A stretch of 40,273 nucleotides of DNA from Candidatus Methylomirabilota bacterium (GTDB lineage Bacteria; Methylomirabilota; Methylomirabilia; Rokubacteriales; CSP1-6), in NCBI GenBank assembly GCA_035275385.1, contig DATEMW010000076.1, positions 1 through 40,273 on the forward strand. The letters run 5' to 3'. A program made the position numbers and the translations under genes. The notes beneath the pieces were generated by a model that saw nothing but the letters and a program-made list of their open reading frames with translations, had not been told where the DNA came from and did not search any database. Below are positions 11,294-21,976 of the stretch, piece by piece (positions within the stretch are counted from its first letter, which is position 1; each line of letters begins with the position of its first letter).

Positions 11294-11650
11294 ATGGCGG
11301 TCAAACTCTTCGTAGGCGGTTTATCCTTTTCCACCTCCAACGAGCGCCTGCGCGAAGCATTCGCGGCGGTCGGCAGCGTCGAATCCGCGAGTGTCGTGAC
11401 CGACCGGGACACCGGCCGTTCGCGGGGCTTCGGGTTCGTCGAGATGGCGACCCCCGAGGAAGCTGAGCAGGCCATTAGCCGCCTCAACGGCACGAACCTC
11501 GACGGCCGAACCATTCAGGTCGAGAAGGCGAAGGCCCCAGGGTCAGGCGGGGGAGGCGATCGGCGCGGCGGCGGGGGCGGCGGCCGCGGTGGGTTCGGCG
11601 GCGGTGGTGGCGGCGGCCGGGGCGGCGGTGCCCGCGGCGGCCGCTGGTAG
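11294..11650 (+). CDS. RRM (RNP-1/RNP-2) RNA-binding protein with Gly/Arg-rich tail
   Basis: RNP-2 is LFVGGL and RNP-1 is RGFGFVEM. The C-terminus is GGGGDRRGGGGGGRGGFGGGGGGGRGGGARGGRW. AAGGAG lies 7 nt upstream of the ATG. Confidence 0.9.
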   Translation: MAVKLFVGGLSFSTSNERLREAFAAVGSVESASVVTDRDTGRSRGFGFVEMATPEEAEQAISRLNGTNLDGRTIQVEKAKAPGSGGGGDRRGGGGGGRGGFGGGGGGGRGGGARGGRW

Positions 11651-12804: not shown

Positions 12805-12832
12805 TCTATATATAGTAATATTATGATATAGA
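12805..12832 (+). promoter_or_regulatory. AT-rich promoter/operator with inverted repeat upstream of the ArsR-family gene
   Basis: TCTATAT (12805-12811) pairs with ATATAGA (12826-12832) across a 14-nt spacer that contains the palindrome TAATATTA. A possible promoter is TTCTAC (12793-12798), a 17-nt spacer, then TAATAT (12816-12821). Confidence 0.5.
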
Positions 12833-12838
12833 GATTAT

Positions 12839-13198
12839 GTGAGCCCGACGCTCTCGATCGACCTCCAGTCGTTCAAGGCGGAGTTCTTCAAGGCGCTGGC
12901 CCACCCCGTCCGCATCCGGATCCTCGAGGTCCTACGGGCCGGCGAGCATAGCGTGCAGGAGCTGCAGGCCCGGCTCGACCTCGATCAGTCGACGGTCTCC
13001 CAGCAGCTGGCGGTACTTCGTACCAAGAACATCGTGACCGCCCGCAAGGAAGGCACGACCGTCCGGTACGAGATCCGCGATCCACTGGTCGGCGACCTTC
13101 TCGACGTGGCCCGTCGCATCTTCAACAATCAGCTGGCCGGCTCCCAGACGATGCTGCGAGCGCTCCGTCAGGAAACGCGCCGGCCGGCGAAGCGCTGA
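12839..13198 (+). CDS. ArsR/SmtB-family transcriptional regulator (GTG start)
   Basis: FKALAHPVRIRILEVLRAGEHSVQELQARLDLDQSTVSQQLAVLR is the canonical ArsR winged HTH. It is the first gene of the operon below. Confidence 0.9.
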   Translation: MSPTLSIDLQSFKAEFFKALAHPVRIRILEVLRAGEHSVQELQARLDLDQSTVSQQLAVLRTKNIVTARKEGTTVRYEIRDPLVGDLLDVARRIFNNQLAGSQTMLRALRQETRRPAKR

Positions 13199-13200
13199 CC

Positions 13201-13710
13201 GTGCTGCGCCAGCTCCGCACCGCGTTCCGTACGGGCATCGTCACCGAACCGGTGCGGGCCTCCGCCGAGCTCGAGCGGGTCGGCGAGCGGCTCGCGACCG
13301 AAATCTCGCGGCTCTTCAGCCGCGCGCTCGCGATCCGTCAGGTCGATGCCGGCTCGTGCAACGGCTGCGAGCTCGAGATCGGTGGCCTCACAGGCCCGCA
13401 CTACGACCTCGAGCGATTCGGCGTGCACTTCGTGGCCTCGCCGCGCCACGCCGATTGCCTGCTGGTGACCGGTCCGGTGACCCGCAACATGGCCGAAGCG
13501 CTACGGCGCACGTGGTTGGCGACGCCGGATCCGAAGTTCGTCGTGGCGGTCGGCGACTGCGGGCGCGACGGGGGAATCTTCCGCAGCTCCTACGCGGTCG
13601 TGGGCGGCGTCGGCGAAGTGGTCCCGGTCGACGCGGTCATCCCCGGATGCCCGCCCTCGCCCGCAGCGCTCCTGGCCGGCCTTCTCGAGGCGATAGGCCG
13701 CCGTCGATGA
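13201..13710 (+). CDS. NuoB/HycG-type small subunit (4Fe-4S) of a group-4-hydrogenase/complex-I-like module
   Basis: Four cluster cysteines are retained: GSCNGCELE (two), GDCGRDGG and IPGCPPSP. The start is GTG, 2 nt after the ArsR stop. Confidence 0.9.
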   Translation: MLRQLRTAFRTGIVTEPVRASAELERVGERLATEISRLFSRALAIRQVDAGSCNGCELEIGGLTGPHYDLERFGVHFVASPRHADCLLVTGPVTRNMAEALRRTWLATPDPKFVVAVGDCGRDGGIFRSSYAVVGGVGEVVPVDAVIPGCPPSPAALLAGLLEAIGRRR

Positions 13711-15617
13711 CCCGACTGGTCTACGGGCTCGTCACGCTCATGGGCGTGGTGGTCGGCGTCGCGGGCGCGTACGGCGCCGCGGGCGGCGCCGGCACCTTGC
13801 GAATAGGCTGGCTCGTGCCGCTCGGCGGTCTTGAGCTGACGCTCGATCCCCTCGCCGGGTTCTTCCTCGCGCTGATCGGCTTCGCGGCCGTGCCGGCGTC
13901 GATCTACGCCATCGGCTCCTCGGACGGCGACGGGCGGGGCCGCTTCGCATACGCCGCGTTCGTGGCGTCGATGTGCGTCGTCCCGCTCGCCGGGAACGTG
14001 ATGACCTTCGTGCTCGCCTGGGAGCTCATGTCGCTGGCGTCATACTTCCTGGTGCTCCGCGACCCCGACTCGCGAGAATCGGTACGCGCCGGCTGGATCT
14101 ACCTCGTCATGACCCACGCCGGGCTCGCCTGTCTGCTCGGAGGCATGCTGCTGCTCGGTGCCGACATCGGCAGCCTCAGGTTCGCAGATTGGCGGGCGGC
14201 GGCGCCGACGCTGACCCCCACGACCCGGAACGTGGCCTTCGTGCTGATGGCCCTCGGCTTCGCCGGCAAGGCCGGCGTGATACCGCTGCACATCTGGCTG
14301 CCGCTCGCGCATCCGGCGGCGCCGAGCCACGTCTCGGCGCTGATGTCCGGCGTCATGATCAAGCTGGGCGTCTACGGGCTCATGCGCGTGAGCCTCGACT
14401 GGCTTGGATCGGGTGCGCCGTGGTGGGGCGTCGCCCTCCTGATCGCCGGCGCTGCGTCCTCGGTGATCGGCGTGCTCTACGCGCTGGTCGAGCACGACCT
14501 CAAGCGCCTGCTCGCGTTCCACAGCATCGAGAACATAGGGATCATCCTGCTCGGCCTCGGCAGCGCTGTGTCGTATCGAGTCGCCGGCCTCGAGGCGCTC
14601 GCGCTCCTCGGGTTGATCGCGGCGCTCTATCACACGGTCAACCATGCCGCATTCAAGGCGCTACTGTTCCTGGGCGCGGGCGCCGTCGTCCACGCGACCG
14701 GCACGCGAAACATGGAGGCGATGGGCGGGCTCATCAAGCGGATGCCGTGGACCGCCGCCTGCTTCCTGATCGGCTCCGCGGCGATCGCGGCCTTGCCGCC
14801 TCTCAACGGCTTCGTGAGTGAATGGCTGACGTTCCTGGCCATGTTTCAGAACGCGAGCCTCGGCGCGGTCGGGCAGAGCCTGGTCTTCACGCTCGGCATC
14901 GCGAGCCTCGCGCTGACCGGTGGTCTCGCGATGGCGTGCTTCGTGAAAGCCTTTGGTATCACGTTCCTCGCTCTTCCCCGGAGCGACGCCGCTGCCCACG
15001 CCGACGAGGCGAGCCCGACCGTGCGCGTGGCGATGCTCGCGCTGGCCGCCGCCTGCATCGGCCTCGGCGTGGCTTCGACGCTGGTCGTTCCGGCGTTCGA
15101 GCACGTGGCGGCGTCGGTCCTGCGAACCGCGCCCCGAGCGACAGCGGGCCACTGGCTCACCCTGCGCGTGTCGGGCGATTTTGCCAGCCTGTCGACCGCG
15201 GCGATCGCCGTCGCCCTGGCCGCGGCGCTCCTCGGCTCGCTCGCGATACTGCGGCTCGTGGGCGCCTCGCACCGCACACGCAGCGACGAGACGTGGGGCT
15301 GCGGCCGGATATTACAGACCGCGCGAATGGAATACACGGCGACCGCATTCGCCAATCCCTTCAAGCGGGTCTTCGATTTCTTCTACCGGCCCACGACGCG
15401 CCTGGACATCGAGTCCCATCCCGAGTCGCGGTTCTTCGTCCAGCGCATCGAATACGAGAGCCCGACGCGCTCCATCTTCGAAGATTGGCTCTATCGGCCC
15501 TCGCTCGACCTTCTCGTCAGGGGCGCGCGCGTCGTCGGCACGCTGCAGTCGGGCAGCACGAATCAGTATCTGGCATACATCCTGGCCGCGCTCCTGCTCC
15601 TGTTGGTCCTCGCGTGA
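13707..15617 (+). CDS. HyfB/HycC/NuoL-like antiporter-type membrane subunit (636 aa)
   Basis: A proton-antiporter (NuoL/M/N, Mrp) fold is indicated by WELMSLASYFLV, GKAGVIPLHIWLPLAHPAAPSHVSALMSGVMIKLGVYG and AFHSIENIG. An ATGA overlap with the upstream stop sets the start at 13707, rather than the upstream extension to 13356. Confidence 0.88.
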   Translation: MTRLVYGLVTLMGVVVGVAGAYGAAGGAGTLRIGWLVPLGGLELTLDPLAGFFLALIGFAAVPASIYAIGSSDGDGRGRFAYAAFVASMCVVPLAGNVMTFVLAWELMSLASYFLVLRDPDSRESVRAGWIYLVMTHAGLACLLGGMLLLGADIGSLRFADWRAAAPTLTPTTRNVAFVLMALGFAGKAGVIPLHIWLPLAHPAAPSHVSALMSGVMIKLGVYGLMRVSLDWLGSGAPWWGVALLIAGAASSVIGVLYALVEHDLKRLLAFHSIENIGIILLGLGSAVSYRVAGLEALALLGLIAALYHTVNHAAFKALLFLGAGAVVHATGTRNMEAMGGLIKRMPWTAACFLIGSAAIAALPPLNGFVSEWLTFLAMFQNASLGAVGQSLVFTLGIASLALTGGLAMACFVKAFGITFLALPRSDAAAHADEASPTVRVAMLALAAACIGLGVASTLVVPAFEHVAASVLRTAPRATAGHWLTLRVSGDFASLSTAAIAVALAAALLGSLAILRLVGASHRTRSDETWGCGRILQTARMEYTATAFANPFKRVFDFFYRPTTRLDIESHPESRFFVQRIEYESPTRSIFEDWLYRPSLDLLVRGARVVGTLQSGSTNQYLAYILAALLLLLVLA

Positions 15618-16558
15618 TGGCCGACGTCGCCGCCGCGCTCCTGCAACTCCTGATCGTCGCCGCCGGCGCCCCGTTGATCGTCGGCGCGCTCCGCACCCTG
15701 AAGGCACGGCTGGTCGGCCGTCGTGGCCCGAGCCCATGGCAGCCCTACGCCGAGCTGCGCAAGCTGATCTCCAAGGAAGCGGTCGTCTCCACGACGACCT
15801 CATGGGTGTTTCGTGCCACTCCGTACGTCCTGGTCGCGACCTTGCTGGTTGCGGCGATGATCGTCCCGATCGCAGTCGCACGGCCGCCGCTGGCGTTCGC
15901 CGGCAACATCATCTTGCTCGTCTACCTCTTCATGCTCGGCACGTTCTTCCTGGCGCTGGCGGGCCTGGACGCGGGCAGCGCCTTCGGCGGCATGGGCTCG
16001 AGCCGCGAGGTAGCCGTCGCCGCGCTCGCCGAGCCGACGATCATCGTTGCGGTGTTTGCACTCGCACTGCGTGCCGGCACGATCGATCTCGGCCGCATCG
16101 CGGAGCGGTTCGGCGCTGAGCCCTGGCTGGCGGCCAATCCCGCGCACCTGCTGGCATTCGCCGCCTTCTTCATCGTCATGCTGGCCGAGACGGGGCGGCT
16201 TCCCGTCGACAACCCGGCGACTCACCTGGAGCTGACGATGATCCACGAGGCGATGGTGCTCGAGTACTCGGGTCGATACCTGGCGCTGATCGAATGGGCA
16301 GCGGCGATGAAGCTTTTCCTATTCATGGCGCTCCTGGCGAACCTCTTCTTTCCCTGGGGTTTGAGCGCTCCGACCGGCCTCGTTCCGATCGCCGTGAGCC
16401 TTCTCAGCTTGACCCTGAAGCTCGGAGTGCTGACGGTGGCCGTTGCGGTGCTCGAGGTCGCGGTGGCGAAGCTCAGACTATTCCGCGTTCCCGAGCTGCT
16501 CGCCGGCTCGTTCGCGCTGGCCCTGTTGTCGCTTATGGCGGTATTCGTCGTCCGATGA
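15617..16558 (+). CDS. HycD/HyfC/NuoH-like membrane subunit
   Basis: VGRRGPSPWQPYAELRKLISKE is a NuoH/HycD hallmark. AETGRLPVDNPATHLELTMIHEAMVLEYSG is conserved. The start overlaps the upstream stop (TGATG). Confidence 0.88.
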   Translation: MADVAAALLQLLIVAAGAPLIVGALRTLKARLVGRRGPSPWQPYAELRKLISKEAVVSTTTSWVFRATPYVLVATLLVAAMIVPIAVARPPLAFAGNIILLVYLFMLGTFFLALAGLDAGSAFGGMGSSREVAVAALAEPTIIVAVFALALRAGTIDLGRIAERFGAEPWLAANPAHLLAFAAFFIVMLAETGRLPVDNPATHLELTMIHEAMVLEYSGRYLALIEWAAAMKLFLFMALLANLFFPWGLSAPTGLVPIAVSLLSLTLKLGVLTVAVAVLEVAVAKLRLFRVPELLAGSFALALLSLMAVFVVR

Positions 16559-17196
16559 CGACCGCATCGAACCTCCTGACATTCCTCTGCCTGGCGATCA
16601 CCTTGCTCATCGTGTGGCGACGGAGCTGGCCGGCGCGTTTGAGGCTCTTCGCCGCCCAATCGCTGCTGCTCGCAATCCTGGCGGGCACGATCGGCGTTCT
16701 CGCGCAGCGACGCGGGCTGTTCCTGGTAGCCGCGGTCGTCGTGGTCGTCAAGGTCTGGGCGATCCCCCGCGTGCTCGCACGCATCGGCTCCGGCGCACCG
16801 GTCCGACCGATCGCACCCGGTCGATCCTCGGGAATCGCGCTCCTGGTCGCCGGAGCTCTCGTCGTCGCGGCATACGTCGTCATGCTTCCGGTCACCGCGG
16901 CAGCGGAGCTGCCGACCGGCGGCGCCATCCCGCTCGCGTTCGCGATGGCCCTGATCGGCCTCGCCCTGTGCGTCACGGGCCGCGACGCGCTGAGCCACAT
17001 CCTGGGCTTCCTCGTCTTCGAGAACGGGATCTTCGGCCTCGCGATCCTGGCCACCTATGGGCTGCCGGGTATCGTCGAGGCCGGCGTCTTCCTCGACGTG
17101 CTGGTCATCGTCCTCATCATGGAAGCCGTGGTCGTGCAGGTGCGCCGCGAGCACGCCTCGATCGATGTCGATCGCCTCCGAGAGCTCCGCGGATGA
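16555..17196 (+). CDS. HyfE/HycP-like (NuoK-related) membrane subunit
   Basis: It is a 213-aa polytopic protein in the position and of the size of hydrogenase-4 component E / Rv0085. The start overlaps the upstream stop (ATGA). Confidence 0.8.
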   Translation: MTTASNLLTFLCLAITLLIVWRRSWPARLRLFAAQSLLLAILAGTIGVLAQRRGLFLVAAVVVVVKVWAIPRVLARIGSGAPVRPIAPGRSSGIALLVAGALVVAAYVVMLPVTAAAELPTGGAIPLAFAMALIGLALCVTGRDALSHILGFLVFENGIFGLAILATYGLPGIVEAGVFLDVLVIVLIMEAVVVQVRREHASIDVDRLRELRG

Positions 17197-18626
17197 TGTT
17201 GCTGGCCGTCCTGGCAATTCCGCTGGTCGGCGCCGCTCTGCTCTGGCGAGCAACCAATCGCCTGGCGACGACGCTGCACGCGGTGACGGCGGCCTCGACG
17301 CTCGCGGCCGGGCTCGCGGTGGCCGTCATGGTCAACGCGGGCGAGACACTGGTGGCGTTCGACGGGCTGCTCCGTGCCGACGCGCTGTCGGCGTGGATGA
17401 TCGCCCTCATCGGCATCGTCGGCGGGCTCGCCGCCTCGGAGGCGCCACGCTACGTCGTGCCGGGCGAGCCGCGTCGCTTCTATCCGCTCTTCCACTTGTT
17501 CGTGTTCACGATGCTGCTCGCGGTCTCTACCGACGACGTCGGCCTCATGTGGGTCGCCGTCGAAGGCACGACGCTCGCGTCGGTCTTCCTGGTCAACTTC
17601 GAGCGCACGCGCGCCTCGCTCGAGGCGTCGTACAAGTACCTCTTGATCTGCTCGGTAGGTATCGCGATCGCATTCCTCGGCACCGTGCTCGTGTACTTCG
17701 CGGGCATCCAGCAGTTCGGCGACGAGACGCACGCGCTCCGGTACACGACCTTGCTGCGGCTGGCCCCCGGGCTCTCGCCGCGCGTCATCGAGCTCGCCTT
17801 CGTCTTCCTCGTCGTCGGCTACGGGACGAAGGCCGGACTGGCGCCGATGCACACGTGGCTGCCGGACGCTCACAGCGAGGCGCCGGCACCGGTGAGCGCG
17901 CTCATGTCGGGCGTCCTGCTGAGCGTCGGGGTGTACGCGATCGCGCGCTTCAAGCCCGCCGTCGACGCGGCAGCTGGGCCCACATTCGCGCGCGGGATCA
18001 TGCTGACGCTCGGCCTGCTGTCGATCGCGGTGGCGTCCGCGTTTCTGTGGACGTCGCCCAACTACAAGCGCGCGCTCGCGTACTCGAGCGTCGAGCACAT
18101 CGGGCTGGTGTGCCTCGGGCTCGGATTCGGCGGGCCGGTCGCTACCGCCGGCGCCCTCCTGCACGTTGCGAACCACGCACTCGCCAAGTCGGCCGGCTTT
18201 CTGATGTCGGGGCGCATCCGCGCCGCATACGGCTCGGCCGAGATCGGCTCGGTGCGCGGCGTCATGAAGCACATGCCTCGGACGGGAGCGGCGTTCCTGA
18301 CCTCGATCCTGGCACTCGTGGGCCTGCCTCCCTTCGGGCTCTTCGTCAGCGAGGTGATGATCTTTGCCGCGGGCTTCAAGCAAGGGTTCCCGCTCGTGGC
18401 GGGCATCGCGCTCCTGCTGCTCGTGATCGCCTTCGCGGGGCTGCTCCGCGGCGTTCACCACATCCTCTACGGGGCTCCCGCCGGCGAGCCCGTGGCCGAG
18501 GTGGCCGGCTGGCCCTCGGTGGTGCCGGTCGCCGCGGCGCTCGGCGTGCTGCTCCTCACCGGGCTGGCGTGGCCGCCGGGATTCGGCGAAGCCCTCGACC
18601 GCCTTGCCGCGATCGTGAGTCCCTGA
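17193..18626 (+). CDS. HyfF/HycQ/NuoN-like antiporter-type membrane subunit (477 aa)
   Basis: GLMWVAVEGTTLASVFLV, GYGTKAGLAPMHTWLPDAHSEAPAPVSALMSGVLL and AYSSVEHIG are present. The start overlaps the upstream stop (ATGA). Confidence 0.88.
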   Translation: MMLLAVLAIPLVGAALLWRATNRLATTLHAVTAASTLAAGLAVAVMVNAGETLVAFDGLLRADALSAWMIALIGIVGGLAASEAPRYVVPGEPRRFYPLFHLFVFTMLLAVSTDDVGLMWVAVEGTTLASVFLVNFERTRASLEASYKYLLICSVGIAIAFLGTVLVYFAGIQQFGDETHALRYTTLLRLAPGLSPRVIELAFVFLVVGYGTKAGLAPMHTWLPDAHSEAPAPVSALMSGVLLSVGVYAIARFKPAVDAAAGPTFARGIMLTLGLLSIAVASAFLWTSPNYKRALAYSSVEHIGLVCLGLGFGGPVATAGALLHVANHALAKSAGFLMSGRIRAAYGSAEIGSVRGVMKHMPRTGAAFLTSILALVGLPPFGLFVSEVMIFAAGFKQGFPLVAGIALLLLVIAFAGLLRGVHHILYGAPAGEPVAEVAGWPSVVPVAAALGVLLLTGLAWPPGFGEALDRLAAIVSP

Positions 18627-20213
18627 ATGCCGGTGACGATCTCGCTCGACACCCTGCGCAAGGCCGTCGTCGCCGCCGGGGCCACGGGCGTCGGCGCGCC
18701 GCACGACGGCTCGATCCAGTGCCGGCTACCGGCCTGGGAAGTGCCCGCGCTCGCTGATCGTCTGGCGGCAGTCGGCGCGCGCTGCCAGTTCATGGCCGCC
18801 GCCGACACGCGCACGGCAGCCAGCGGCGACTTCACCCTCGCTTACGTTTTCGCCCCACCGCAGCTCGCGCCGTCGGTCAGCGTGCTGGCGGCCGTTCCGG
18901 CCGGGACGGCCCGCTTCGCCTCGCTCGCGACGCGTTCGTTCGCGGCGAGCCGCTTCGAGCGGGAGATCCACGACCTGTTCGGTCTGGTTCCAGAGGGCCA
19001 TCCGGACTTGCGCCGGCTCGCGCTGCACCAGTACTGGCCAGAGGGGTATCACCCGCTCCGCCGCGACGTCGCGCCCCGGACGGATTTCGTCGACACCGGC
19101 GAGCCGTTTCCGTTCCGGCGGGTCGACGGCGAGGGCATCTTCGAGATCACCGTGGGGCCGGTTCACGCCGGAATCATCGAGCCCGGCCATTTTCGCTTCA
19201 GCGTCGAAGGCGAGACGATCGTGAATCTCGAGACACGCCTGGGCTTCGTTCACAAGGGGACGGAACGGCTGCTGGCAGAGTCAGCCCTCGAGCGTGGACC
19301 AGAGCTCGCCGAGCGGGTCTCGGGCGACACGACCGTCGGCCACGTCATGGCCTTCTGTCAGGCGCTCGAGGCCCTCGCCGGCTGCGTAGTGCCGCCCCGC
19401 GCGCGCCTGCTTCGGCTCGTCCTGCTCGAGCTCGAGCGGATCTACAACCACGTCGGTGACGTGGGCATGATCGTGAACGACACCGGATTCGCCTTCGGGC
19501 ACGCGCACTGCTTCCGAATTCGCGAAGAGCTGCTGCGGCTCAACGAACGGCTCACCGGCCACCGTCTGATGCGCGGAGCGGTGGTGCCGGGCGGAGTGGC
19601 GGGCCCGATCGCTGCCGTGCCGCTGCTCGAGGCTGCGACGGCCGCCGGCAATCTGGTCGCGGAGTTCGCCGCGGTCACGCGGGTCTGCCTGGACAACACG
19701 CTGGTCCTCGAACGGCTCCAGGGGACCGGTCGTCTGACCGCGCGGACTGCGGAGGAGATGCAAGTGGTCGGGCTCGTCGGACGTGCGAGCGGGATCGATG
19801 CCGATGTCCGCCGCGACGCGCCCTTCGCCGCCTACGACGGCGCCCACGTGCGCGTGGCGGTGTACGGAGCGGGCGACGTGTGGGCGCGGACGATGGTGCG
19901 CCTGGACGAAGCGCGCGAGGCGGCGCGCCTCATCGGCGAGGCCGCCCGCCGCGACACGAGCGGACCCGTGCGAGCCTCGCTGCCGCCCTTCAAGGCCGGC
20001 GCGCACGCCTTCGGGCTCGTCGAAGCGTGGCGCGGGCCCGTGTGGCACTGGGTGCTCGCTGACGGCCCCAAGTCGCTCAGTCGCGTGAAGATCGTCGACC
20101 CGTCCTTTCGTAACTGGCCGGCGCTCGAATACGCGGTACTCAACAACATCGTTCCGGATTTTCCCCTCTGTAACAAGTCCTTCAACCTCTCGTACTCGGG
20201 GAACGATCTCTAG
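18627..20213 (+). CDS. HycE/HyfG-like large subunit (NuoC-NuoD fusion) lacking the paired [NiFe] cysteine motifs
   Basis: The NuoC-like part contains RFEREIHDLFGLVPEGHPDLRRL. The NuoD / NiFe-large-subunit part contains ITVGPVHAGIIEPGHFRF and LGFVHKGTERL. The position of the RxCGxCxxxH motif reads ERVSGDTTVGH (19311-19343). The position of the C-terminal DPCxxCxxR motif reads NLSYSGNDL (20184-20210), followed directly by the stop. Confidence 0.9.
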   Translation: MPVTISLDTLRKAVVAAGATGVGAPHDGSIQCRLPAWEVPALADRLAAVGARCQFMAAADTRTAASGDFTLAYVFAPPQLAPSVSVLAAVPAGTARFASLATRSFAASRFEREIHDLFGLVPEGHPDLRRLALHQYWPEGYHPLRRDVAPRTDFVDTGEPFPFRRVDGEGIFEITVGPVHAGIIEPGHFRFSVEGETIVNLETRLGFVHKGTERLLAESALERGPELAERVSGDTTVGHVMAFCQALEALAGCVVPPRARLLRLVLLELERIYNHVGDVGMIVNDTGFAFGHAHCFRIREELLRLNERLTGHRLMRGAVVPGGVAGPIAAVPLLEAATAAGNLVAEFAAVTRVCLDNTLVLERLQGTGRLTARTAEEMQVVGLVGRASGIDADVRRDAPFAAYDGAHVRVAVYGAGDVWARTMVRLDEAREAARLIGEAARRDTSGPVRASLPPFKAGAHAFGLVEAWRGPVWHWVLADGPKSLSRVKIVDPSFRNWPALEYAVLNNIVPDFPLCNKSFNLSYSGNDL

Positions 20214-20812
20214 ACGACCCTGCCGCCGCCGACCGACCGCGCCGAGAAGCGGCGCATGTCGGCCTTCTCGGAGCGGCCTTCCGCTTCGATCACGAAGCCC
20301 GCCGCCTCGACCGCCCGCTCGGTGTCCCGGTTGGGGTGACAGCCGCCGCTGACCCACGTCCACACCGGCTCCACGCGATCTTGAAATATCGCCTTCCACC
20401 GTCGCCGCGAGCGTACGTGCTCCAGCATCCGTAGCCGGCCATCGCGCCGCAGCACGCGCTTGACCTCGGCGAGGCCCCGCGCGGGCTCCCGCACGGTGCA
20501 GAAGACCAGGCTCGAGACCACGGTGTCGAAGGCGTCGTCGCGGAAGGGCAGCGCCTCGGCGCTTCCCTGCACCAGCGGCACGGTCGGCGCGCGGCGCCGG
20601 GCACGCGCGAGCGAGTCCCAGGCCGGATCGAGACCGATCGGACGAACGTCACGGGAATAGAGCGCGAGCCCGCGTCCGGTGCCGCAGCCGACGTCGAGCG
20701 TTCGGCCGCGCGCGCCGGCGGCGAGCCAGCGCCGCCAGGCGTCGAGGCCCGTACGCTCGAGCACCGCGCAGAGCCCGTCGTAGAGCCACGGGATCTGCTC
20801 GACCCCGCGCAC
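20210..20812 (-). CDS. Class I SAM-dependent methyltransferase
   Basis: Motif I is LDVGCGTGRGL. LVFCTV and GRLRMLEHV follow. The GTG start directly abuts the FIST stop (TGAGTG). Confidence 0.85.
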   Translation of the reverse strand: MRGVEQIPWLYDGLCAVLERTGLDAWRRWLAAGARGRTLDVGCGTGRGLALYSRDVRPIGLDPAWDSLARARRRAPTVPLVQGSAEALPFRDDAFDTVVSSLVFCTVREPARGLAEVKRVLRRDGRLRMLEHVRSRRRWKAIFQDRVEPVWTWVSGGCHPNRDTERAVEAAGFVIEAEGRSEKADMRRFSARSVGGGRVV

Positions 20813-21976
20813 TCAGGCCTCGGGAAAGACGACGAGCGCGCCCGTGTAGTTGTGGAAGAAGTTGCGGCGGCCGATCGGCGCGAACTCGCCGTTGCCGAAG
20901 AACCCGACCAGCGGGAATTCGCCGAGCTTCTCGCGGATCAAGGTCACGTCGTGATCGGCGACGCCGAAGAGCCCGCGGCCGCGTCCGGCGCAATCGAAGT
21001 AGCAGCCGAACGCCGGCCGCCGCCCGGCGAGCCGCCCCGCGAGCTCGTCGAGCATCTCGATCAGGTCGTCGCGCGAGGCCTGCGCATCGCGGATCTGGAA
21101 CTGCAGGGTCTGTCCAATCCGCACGCGCTCGGCGACGGCCAGGGCGCCGCTCGCCTGATCAGCGCCGACCAGATTGCGCACGAGGAAGTCGCCGCGCTCG
21201 AGGGGCGACTTGGCCGGATCCATCGCGAGCCCGGCGAAGACGCCAGCGTGTCGAATACGCGACTCGGTGTCGGGGTTCGCGCGGATCGCCTGGGTGAGCA
21301 CCTCCAGCGCCGGCCGGCTCGCGATCCGCTGGATCACGTTGGCGTCGGCGTGCGTGATCACGTACGGCTCGCCGATCGGCGTGCAGCCCTGCGTGACGCC
21401 GATCAGCGGCGAGAGCCCGGAGAGCGCGACGCCGACCAGCGCGCCTTCGGTCGCGTCGGTGTTATAGAGCTCGAACATCGGCGAGCCCGCCGCGACCGCG
21501 CCGAGCACGGGCACGAAGCCGAGCGCTTCACCGAGCTCGTTCAGGAGCGCCGGCGGGTTGCAGCCGATGGCGTCGGGCAGCACGAGCACGCAGCCGCCTT
21601 CCGCGACGGTCGGCCCGATCTGCTGGCCGAGCTCAGCGCCGAGCTGGGGCCGCTCGCCCTGGCGCTCGAACGAAAACGGCGTGGCGACGAGACGCTCGCA
21701 GCGGACCGCGAGCACCGCGACGGCCAGATCCTCTTCCACTTCGCGGCGCTCGGTCAGGATCCCGGTGCCGCTGCAGCCGATGACGACCGGCGCTCCGGTG
21801 ACGCGCCGGACCGCGTGCAGCGCCTCGTGAGCGCGCGCCCGGGCGTCGCCAGTGGTGAAGACGAGGGCGAGGTCGGCGCGATCGGCGCCGCTCCGCTCGA
21901 GGGCCTGTAGCGATGCCTCGAGCGCGGCGTTGTCGGCGGTGCCGCCCACGGCGAGACCGGTTCCCGCGGCGATCAT
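20813..21976 (-). CDS. Stand-alone FIST (FIST_N + FIST_C) sensory-domain protein
   Basis: It has a FIST-like layout: LALVFTTGD...VIGCSGTGIL in the N-terminal half and FPLVGFFGNGEFAP...HNYTGALVVF at the C-terminus. Confidence 0.82.
   Translation of the reverse strand: MIAAGTGLAVGGTADNAALEASLQALERSGADRADLALVFTTGDARARAHEALHAVRRVTGAPVVIGCSGTGILTERREVEEDLAVAVLAVRCERLVATPFSFERQGERPQLGAELGQQIGPTVAEGGCVLVLPDAIGCNPPALLNELGEALGFVPVLGAVAAGSPMFELYNTDATEGALVGVALSGLSPLIGVTQGCTPIGEPYVITHADANVIQRIASRPALEVLTQAIRANPDTESRIRHAGVFAGLAMDPAKSPLERGDFLVRNLVGADQASGALAVAERVRIGQTLQFQIRDAQASRDDLIEMLDELAGRLAGRRPAFGCYFDCAGRGRGLFGVADHDVTLIREKLGEFPLVGFFGNGEFAPIGRRNFFHNYTGALVVFPEA

Follow-up and report, generated by a model that had tools for sequence, protein, structure and literature searches.

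What becomes of an energy-converting hydrogenase when its large subunit can no longer hold the metal? The question is raised by an open reading frame (ORF) at positions 18627-20213 (+) of a stretch of 40,273 nt from a Candidatus Methylomirabilota bacterium (order Rokubacteriales, CSP1-6; GenBank assembly GCA_035275385.1, contig DATEMW010000076.1, positions 1 to 40,273), the whole of which we call the window. The encoded protein resembles the catalytic subunit of group 4 [NiFe] hydrogenases, and the residues that would bind the NiFe center have been replaced. We consider it probable that this ORF encodes the large subunit of a six-subunit membrane complex of the energy-converting hydrogenase-related (Ehr) type, derived from group 4 (4f/Hyf-like) hydrogenases, and that the complex still translocates ions. 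The Ehr family has been described since 2005-2013 (PMC6349859, PMC10284858, PMC4758237, PMC7304191, PMC10432482). It is defined by a group 4 hydrogenase-like large subunit without the NiFe-binding Cys residues (PMC6349859, PMC10284858), has been reported in Margulisbacteria/Saganbacteria, comammox Nitrospira, ammonia-oxidizing archaea, and the candidate phyla radiation (CPR), is mentioned regularly in metagenome papers, and its function has repeatedly been called unknown (PMC6349859, PMC10284858, PMC7304191, PMC10432482); we found nothing in the open literature on an Ehr structure or function. The window adds a member from Rokubacteria/Methylomirabilota, the group that the named homologues also indicate.

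The ORF runs from an ATG to a TAG codon with no internal stop and specifies 528 residues, in which a NuoC-like N-terminal domain (PF00329, the 30-kDa family; residues 51-149, E=9.8e-17) is fused to a HycE/NuoD-like domain (PF00346, the 49-kDa family; E=7.3e-38); the NiFeSe_Hases model stays under its cut-off. Among proteins of solved structure, the best sequence match is Escherichia coli HycE (7z0s_E, E=1.4e-63), followed by E. coli NuoCD (2.5e-37), MbhL (5.5e-26), and MbsL (5.3e-23). An AlphaFold 2 (AF2) model built from a 111-sequence alignment, with a predicted local distance difference test score (pLDDT) of 86.8 and a predicted template modeling score (pTM) of 0.89, gave the same picture: HycE is its best match in the PDB (TM score 0.85, 27% identity), with E. 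coli NuoCD at 0.74-0.82, and no Ehr structure was among the matches of that search. The HycE/NuoD-like fold that the first-pass annotation had read from the sequence is thus borne out by both the domain models and the predicted structure. In the phmmer alignment to HycE, ‘drvcgicgfah’ is paired with ‘ervsgdttvgh’ and ‘ldpcysctd’ with ‘fnlsysgnd’. Where R-x-C-G-x-C-x3-H (the L1 motif) would be, the protein reads ERVSGDTTVGH (residues 229-239, positions 19311-19343, +), and in place of the (D/E)-(P/L)-C-x-x-C-x-D-R of the L2 motif it reads NLSYSGNDL (residues 520-528, positions 20184-20210, +), directly followed by the stop codon. Residue by residue, HycE C241 has become S232, C244 has become T235, C531 has become S522, and C534 has become G525; the His of the first motif is retained (H239). 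That all four Cys residues are gone and the His kept is as the first-pass annotation had it, and its coordinates for the ORF, both motifs, and a nearby Cys515 (positions 20169-20171) are exact.

Do these replacements carry information of their own? A scan of 1.84 billion cluster representatives (50% identity) returned 1062 proteins at E ≤ 1e-30; 119 full-length sequences out of the best 150 were aligned, and in 114 of them none of the four ligand positions falls in a gap. None of the ligand Cys residues is present in 81 of these representatives, all four are present in 20, and 13 are mixed. Within the 81 Cys-less representatives, the position of the first Cys (232) is Ser in 63 and Ala in 16, followed by Gly at 233 (76) and by Asp at 234 (71), where Cys-type proteins have Val, Ala, or Ile. 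The position of the second Cys (235) varies among Ser, Thr, Glu, and Asn, and H239 is kept in 55. At the other end, Asn is found at 520 in 63, Ser at the position of the third Cys (522) in 75, Tyr at 523 in 73, and Gly at the position of the fourth Cys (525) in 76; Asp527 is present in all 81, and the C terminus lies at the same residue (...G-x-D-L) in every one of them. The consensus is Ser-Gly-Asp for the first motif and Ser-Tyr-(Ser/Ala)-Gly-x-Asp for the C-terminal one, and two word-indexed searches, the second seeded with the Mycobacterium persicum protein, found the Cys-less motifs in 240 of 240 close homologues. By this comparison, the replacement residues are a conserved polar set, and not the outcome of decay, chance, or sequencing error. 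Decay is ruled out because these residues are among the most conserved of the large subunit, and a pseudogene or sequencing error is ruled out by the intact, translationally coupled ORF and by the occurrence of identical motifs and an identical C terminus in hundreds of independent assemblies.

The ligands might still be present but displaced, a possibility that the first-pass annotation had itself proposed to check. Translation of positions 19200-19450 and 20050-20500 in every plus-strand frame gave neither a CxxC nor a DPC motif, which rules out a genuine [NiFe] hydrogenase with ligands hidden by a frameshift near the motifs or downstream, and the uniform C terminus of the Cys-less representatives agrees with this. 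The lone Cys515 does exist, but its column is variable among those representatives (Cys in 32, Ile in 27, and Val in 13), and it can be dismissed as a ligand. Similarly, the protein does stop right after NLSYSGNDL, without a C-terminal extension, but 17 of the 20 four-Cys relatives also stop after CxxCxDR; the missing extension is therefore not diagnostic of Cys-less proteins. Judged by its sequence, then, the large subunit is devoid of all four NiFe-ligating Cys residues and unable to ligate a NiFe center. Because no such center is possible, a complex of the Ehr type would neither make nor oxidize H2.

Where the Cys-less proteins came from is suggested by their nearest Cys-bearing kin. In a crude neighbor-joining tree, four-Cys, 4f-like sequences lie basal or adjacent to the Cys-less group, and the study of Nitrospira likewise sets Ehr beside group 4f (PMC10284858). 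Within the Cys-less group of the same crude tree, there is one sequence with all four Cys residues (P0134), and a sub-group (P0163, P0203, P0223, P0225, P0237, P0254, P0265) keeps the first Cys only, reading C-G-D-S ... A-Y-A-G-x-D-[LM]. Loss of the ligand Cys residues may thus have been repeated or stepwise. The first-pass annotation had also cited the idea that Ehr is an intermediate on the way from group 4 hydrogenases to complex I. We find no support for this in the present clade because its large subunit is nearer to HycE (1e-63) than to NuoCD (1e-37), its four-Cys kin are 4f-like, and the family loses redox centers and does not acquire features of complex I.

For the surroundings of the former NiFe site, roles of HycE residues were taken from the paper on the formate hydrogenlyase (FHL) structure (PMC9474812) and mapped through the HycE sequence alignment. 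The most conserved stretch of the large subunit is the β1–β2 loop (residues 176-191, VGPVHAGIIEPGHFRF; positions 19152-19199, +), which is of the hydrogenase type: across 33 sequences of 32-56% overall identity, 10 of the 16 positions never vary and another 4 reach 90% conservation or more. Its E185 corresponds to HycE E193 and to MbhL E21, and 78 of the 81 Cys-less representatives have it. The canopy Arg478 of HycE is R469 here (kept in 78), and the proton-path residues His284, Arg395, and Glu437 are H275 (74), R386 (78), and E428 (77). The predicted hydrogenase proton wiring around the pocket is retained in these five residues, Glu185, Arg469, His275, Arg386, and Glu428. The window protein differs from group 4f and HycE in the four replaced Cys residues, in the Asp gained at 234, and in a canopy acid that has become Asn520.

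The first-pass annotation had noted, too, that the pocket is unlike the quinone site of NuoD, and this is upheld. The quinone head group in NuoD is bound by a Tyr (Nqo4 Y87) and a His (H38), and the β1–β2 loop is short (PMC7684303). In the alignment to E. coli NuoCD, ‘sgd’ falls opposite ‘eyl’ (of ‘drieyl’), which places Gly233 at the quinone-binding Tyr; the loop reads EPGHFRF, and the NCBIfam NuoD equivalog models score far under their cut-offs (NF004739, 201.9 versus 360; TIGR01962, 168.4 versus 459). With Gly at the position of the Tyr and a longer, hydrogenase-type loop, the pocket is best described as a hydrogenase pocket that has lost its metal and gained an Asp, unlike that of NuoD or of MbsL, the latter lacking the loop Glu. 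Complex I and the window complex are alike in the fold of this subunit, in the loss of the NiFe-ligating Cys residues, and in the NuoC–NuoD fusion that is also found in E. coli; they differ in the quinone Tyr, in the loop, and in the CxxC of the NuoB-like subunit, which in complex I is a tandem CC ligating cluster N2. NuoA, NuoI, NuoJ, and the N-module are not present in the window complex.

The HycE-like gene ends a series of seven translationally coupled genes (12839-20213, +), and its partners identify the complex. An ArsR-family regulator gene, taken up below, is followed by genes for a NuoB/HycG-like small subunit of 169 residues (13201-13710, +; PF01058, E=4.3e-31; NCBIfam NuoB subfamily 129.5 versus a cut-off of 116), a HyfB/HycC-like antiporter-like subunit of 636 residues (13707-15617, +; NCBIfam HyfB 656 bits versus a cut-off of 667; best PDB match HycC, 7z0s_C, E=1.1e-70), a HycD/NuoH-like membrane anchor of 313 residues (15617-16558, +; PF00146, E=2.6e-42), whose start overlaps the preceding stop, a HyfE-like small membrane subunit of 213 residues with weak similarity to NuoK (16555-17196, +; PF00420, E=2.3e-4, under the Pfam cut-off), orthologues of which hold the same operon position in most loci, and a HyfF/MbhH/MrpD-like antiporter-like subunit of 477 residues (17193-18626, +; HyfF 409.6 bits versus a cut-off of 610; best PDB matches MbhH, 6cfw_H, E=6e-37, and MbsH). 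A large subunit without NiFe-ligating Cys residues, encoded together with NuoB-like, NuoH-like, and antiporter-like partners, is what the literature defines as Ehr, and the Ehr identity assigned on first reading stands. Between published Ehr and the window, nothing essential differs; in the window clade, ArsR and NuoB come first in the operon, which has no HycF/NuoI ferredoxin domain. The HyfB/HycD/HyfE/HyfF/large/small gene set is shared with group 4f ‘Ehf’, Hyf, and Hyc (7Z0S), as are the fold, the fused NuoC-like domain, the β1–β2 loop Glu, the canopy Arg, and the proton-path His, Glu, and Arg; unlike these, the window has no HycF domain, and HycB/FdhF, hyp, and protease genes are absent from it. 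In a Pfam survey of essentially all ORFs of the 40-kb window, there were no hyp genes and no genes for formate dehydrogenase, NuoEFG, HycB, or an endopeptidase.

What redox centers are left? In the NuoB-like subunit, C53, C56, C120, and C150 are the ligands of one predicted proximal [4Fe-4S] cluster, with the CxxC of the hydrogenase type (C53-N-G-C56), and in an alignment of 74 loci, Cys occupies each of these columns in 70-73. A ferredoxin-type subunit or domain (HycF/NuoI) was not found in the window operon. A trace of one was found instead, at the N terminus of the NuoB-like subunit, where comparison with ferredoxin-bearing loci identifies a peptide (MLRQLRTAFRTGIVTEP; positions 13201-13251, +) as a remnant of the amphipathic helix that begins HycF/NuoI-type proteins, a helix described as superfamily-wide (PMC9474812). 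In some other loci, this peptide leads into an intact 2x CxxCxxCxxxCP domain that is part of a NuoB fusion or has its own gene upstream, and elsewhere the domain after it is degenerate, with only ‘CP’ and CxxCxxC, which would suffice for one cluster. One fusion protein (L079) matches E. coli HycF from the very first residue of each (E=2.9e-18) and, farther along, HycG. A hidden Markov model of the peptides from ferredoxin-bearing proteins ranked the NuoB frame of the window best of 588 six-frame segments (E=0.007). The comparison indicates that the 2x[4Fe-4S] domain of HycF has been deleted from the window complex, with its N-terminal peptide left on NuoB.

Of the Cys-less loci, about 8 have the full HycF domain, about 10 have a remnant sufficient for one cluster, and about 48 lack the domain; all five four-Cys loci retain some of it. 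In 4 of the 74 loci, all of the CPR type, the NuoB cluster ligands are lost as well; in three of these (L024 4314-4904, L039 4199-4795, and L044 4164-4829), three of the four Cys ligands are gone (T/D, D/G, D). The window complex thus has one predicted redox center, the [4Fe-4S] cluster of NuoB, and some relatives are predicted to have none; the CPR-type complexes without NuoB ligands appear to carry no redox cofactor. A precedent for a non-hydrogenase descendant of group 4 is MBS/Mbx of Pyrococcus furiosus (MbsL, 6U8Y), which lacks a NiFe site and performs its chemistry at the proximal [4Fe-4S] cluster (PMC7684303). There, MbsL keeps two of the four Cys residues and lacks the loop Glu, the complex has three clusters, the proximal one held by three Cys residues in a shortened motif, and the membrane arm is of the Mrp type with 13 subunits (PMC7684303). 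The window complex, in contrast, has no ligand Cys, the loop Glu, standard CxxC spacing, one cluster, six subunits, and a Hyf-type arm.

The membrane arm has kept most of what ion translocation requires. In the HyfB-like subunit, the Glu of transmembrane helix (TM) 5, the Lys of TM7, the Lys of TM8, and the Glu of TM12 are all present. Its TM7 sequence ‘gfagkag’ aligns with ‘gfgllag’ of HycC, which has Leu208 at the position of the Lys, so the membrane arm in the window looks more pump-competent than that of FHL-1. The HyfF-like subunit has the Glu of TM5 and the Lys of TM7; its TM12 has Glu instead of Lys, and the position of the TM8 Lys is Ser (‘SGVLLSVGVYA’ versus ‘SGLVIKIGGIYA’ of MbhH and other antiporter-like subunits). 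With these Glu and Lys residues kept in both antiporter-like subunits, the ion-translocation residues are largely intact. No MrpE/F/G-like genes were found by Pfam or NCBIfam in the window.

The unit is widespread. With each GTDB species represented by a single genome, a pattern scan gave at least 592 confirmed loci, so that the six-subunit Ehr unit is present in at least 592 species genomes of many phyla; the best 80 loci were compared in detail. These come from Rokubacteria, Chloroflexi, Nitrospirota, Acidobacteriota, Verrucomicrobiota, and Omnitrophota, from actinomycetes (Streptomyces, Nonomuraea, Lentzea, and several mycobacteria), and from Bacillota, CPR, Saganbacteria, Thaumarchaeota, and Methanomassiliicoccales. 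Relatives with the same motifs include those of Nitrospira (L013, L017), Nitrosotenuis (L068), Saganbacteria (L050), and CPR (L024, L039, L055). Four-Cys large subunits in the same architecture were found in 5 of the 80 loci (L036, L043, L052, L069, L073). Carriers that can be cultured include Streptomyces, Nonomuraea, Mycolicibacter, M. marinum, and Thermincola, and Ectobacillus for the four-Cys sister. The genes are arranged either as in the window, (ArsR)-NuoB-HyfB-HycD-HyfE-HyfF-HycE, or as HyfB-HycD-HyfE-HyfF-HycE-(HycF)-NuoB. All-against-all clustering of the flanking ORFs of the 80 loci revealed no recurrent neighbor beyond ArsR and the six core genes, which suggests that the six genes form a self-contained unit. 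A conserved adjacent partner for electron input (formate dehydrogenase, NuoEF, HycB, or hyp) was sought and rejected, as none was present in the window or recurrent across the 80 loci.

How might such a complex work? In the reading we prefer, it would still be a translocator of H+ and/or Na+, redox-linked or redox-gated. The β1–β2 loop and the remodeled pocket would form a proton-coupled switch beside the single NuoB cluster. A soluble one-electron donor, for example a ferredoxin docking at the former place of HycF, could shift the redox state of that cluster, and the change would drive or gate protonation of the pocket, to be relayed by the loop system to the antiporter-like subunits. Several observations weigh against this scheme. 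The canopy acid of HycE, Asp529, is replaced by Asn520 (Asn in 63 of the 81 Cys-less representatives), which makes the proton path differ in part from that of hydrogenases. In the AF2 model, the pLDDT falls below 50 at the β1–β2 loop (residues 161-196) and in the last five residues. Finally, the CPR-type loci without NuoB ligands keep SGD...H and NLSY(S/T)G.D in an otherwise intact operon; the pocket motifs thus outlast the cluster, and the role of the pocket may need no electrons.

This last point favors the main rival, in which the complex would be a redox-independent, Mrp-like cation/proton antiporter, its hydrophilic cap serving as a structural plug or regulator, its [4Fe-4S] cluster as a structural element or sensor, and its pocket as a proton or cation gate. 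The stepwise disappearance of redox centers across the Cys-less family, from NiFe to HycF to the NuoB cluster of CPR-type loci, speaks for this proposal, as do the lack of an electron-input partner encoded nearby in any compared locus, the canonical charged residues kept in the antiporter-like subunits, and the good matches of both large membrane subunits to Mrp structures in the PDB. However, the four NuoB Cys residues are conserved in 70 of 74 loci, which would be costly for a purely structural role, the residues of the proton path toward the pocket are maintained just as they are in active hydrogenases, and true Mrp antiporters consist of the MrpA-G membrane subunits only and work without a hydrophilic cap such as the NuoB-like and HycE-like subunits provide here. 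We regard this rival as rather unlikely. A second proposal, less likely than the antiporter and in our view improbable, is a minimal complex I/NDH-1-like ferredoxin:quinone oxidoreductase, in which menaquinone, bound where HycE, NuoB, and HycD meet, would take up electrons from the NuoB cluster, the proton donors being Asp234, Glu185, and His188 instead of the Tyr and His of NuoD. Ehr and hyq have indeed been proposed as quinone-reactive intermediates (PMC4758237). The module set equals the Q-module plus the P-module of complex I, the carriers that keep the cluster are mostly respiratory and quinone-containing (Rokubacteria, Nitrospira, actinomycetes, Acidobacteria), and the cluster-less versions lie in CPR-type loci. 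CPR bacteria are not known to have quinones. But the Tyr position is Gly233 in 76 of 81, the loop is longer and of the hydrogenase type, the NuoB motif is CxxC, the NuoD equivalogs fall under their cut-offs, and a Cys-less version with a full HycF is found in Acetobacterium (L079), an organism that is not known to have quinones either. That the protein is after all a real [NiFe] hydrogenase with hidden ligands, or a decaying pseudogene, is hardly credible given the plus frames searched without finding CxxC, the intact coupled ORF, the conserved motifs, and the variable C515.

Ehr may also be viewed as something other than a hydrogenase with an unnamed substrate. Tentatively, and as a possibility rather than an expectation, we suggest that the Ehr lineage is a group 4f hydrogenase turning into an ion translocator that is gated by redox changes or wholly independent of them. 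Cofactors would have been lost in order: the NiFe site; then the HycF domain, reduced to a one-cluster remnant and then to the N-terminal, membrane-surface peptide that NuoB carries in the window; and, in CPR-type complexes, the NuoB cluster. Throughout, the former NiFe pocket (S-G-D...H / S-Y-S-G-x-D), the loop, and the proton-path residues would have stayed under strong selection, with the pocket acting as a proton or cation gate.

The operon is headed by a gene for an ArsR/SmtB-family regulator of 119 residues (12839-13198, +; Pfam HTH_20/HTH_5; NF033788 94.6 bits versus a cut-off of 55), whose stop codon lies 2 nt ahead of the NuoB-like start. The regulator contains no Cys and no obvious His-rich α5 site, and it occupies the position of Rv0081 in the mycobacterial hyc locus discussed below. 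An ArsR gene is found directly upstream of the Ehr operon in many loci, mycobacterial ones included. Five nucleotides upstream of the ArsR start in the window is an AT-rich 30-bp palindrome (TCTATATATAGTAATATTATGATATAGAGA; 12805-12834, no strand assigned; 17-nt arms, 82% complementary), a candidate operator/promoter that contrasts with a window GC content of ~69%; a similar AT-rich palindrome precedes the ArsR gene in L002, L003, L008, and L010. The palindrome of the window probably serves as the operator for ArsR and overlaps the promoter. The regulator is unlikely to sense metals or persulfide in the classical manner. At the other end, a gene for a class I S-adenosylmethionine methyltransferase (20210-20812, -) is convergent with the HycE-like gene, their stop codons overlapping by 4 nt, and a gene for a FIST N/C-domain sensor protein (20813-21976, -) is also convergent to the operon; neither recurs beside the operon in other loci. 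The remainder of the window serves unrelated functions, with genes for a KaiC-like ATPase, DNA ligase, LexA, a two-component/sigma-54 system, glycosyltransferases, and transporters, among others. One ORF (11294-11647, +; 118 residues) encodes a eukaryote-type RNA recognition motif (RRM_1, E=1.2e-23) and adjoins a gene for a VTT/DedA-family membrane protein.

The mycobacterial relatives deserve separate consideration. In Mycobacterium tuberculosis, Rv0081-Rv0087 are listed as a regulator, two ‘oxidoreductases’, hycD, hycP, hycQ, and hycE, and continue to be presented as a putative [NiFe] hydrogenase or formate hydrogenlyase; the gene list and order of the mycobacterial hyc locus are those of the window operon. 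The mycobacterial loci that we recovered (M. persicum, Mycolicibacter kumamotonensis, and others) have the window gene order, with ArsR first. Their large subunits, ~44% identical to the window protein, read ERISGD..A.H and NKSFNLSYAGNDL, and the Cys-less motifs are present in all mycobacterial proteins recovered (L045, L062, L063, L070, L071; P0271-P0390), which are named ‘formate hydrogenase HycE’ or ‘hydrogenase large subunit’ in their sources. With such motifs in proteins called HycE, the putative mycobacterial formate hydrogenlyase is probably an Ehr complex and not a hydrogenase. No record named M. tuberculosis turned up in the homologue search seeded with the M. persicum protein or in the cluster look-up; we infer the motif of Rv0087 itself from gene order and from its close mycobacterial relatives.

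These results bear first on how such genes are read. Under their current database names (‘Ni,Fe-hydrogenase III large subunit’, ‘formate hydrogenase HycE’, and ‘NADH-quinone oxidoreductase subunit C’), H2 metabolism or complex I could be wrongly attributed to Rokubacteria, and the same risk of misannotation probably extends to the hypoxia-induced hyc locus of mycobacteria. The family concerned is large and conserved: with its at least 592 species genomes, spread over soil and groundwater organisms, nitrifiers, actinomycetes, and CPR, Ehr ranks among the larger members of the complex I superfamily that lack an assigned function. Possibly new here are the remnant of HycF carried by NuoB, the gradual disappearance of cofactors, the conservation of Asp234 and Asn520, and the Cys-less state of mycobacterial ‘HycE’. 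If the pocket is indeed a gate, Ehr would present the machinery for conformational coupling in this superfamily by itself, without any catalysis. How a hydrophilic arm is coupled to antiporter-like subunits is a central question for complex I, MBH, and FHL, and the graded loss of redox centers around a conserved pocket and loop would offer natural minimal versions in which to address it.

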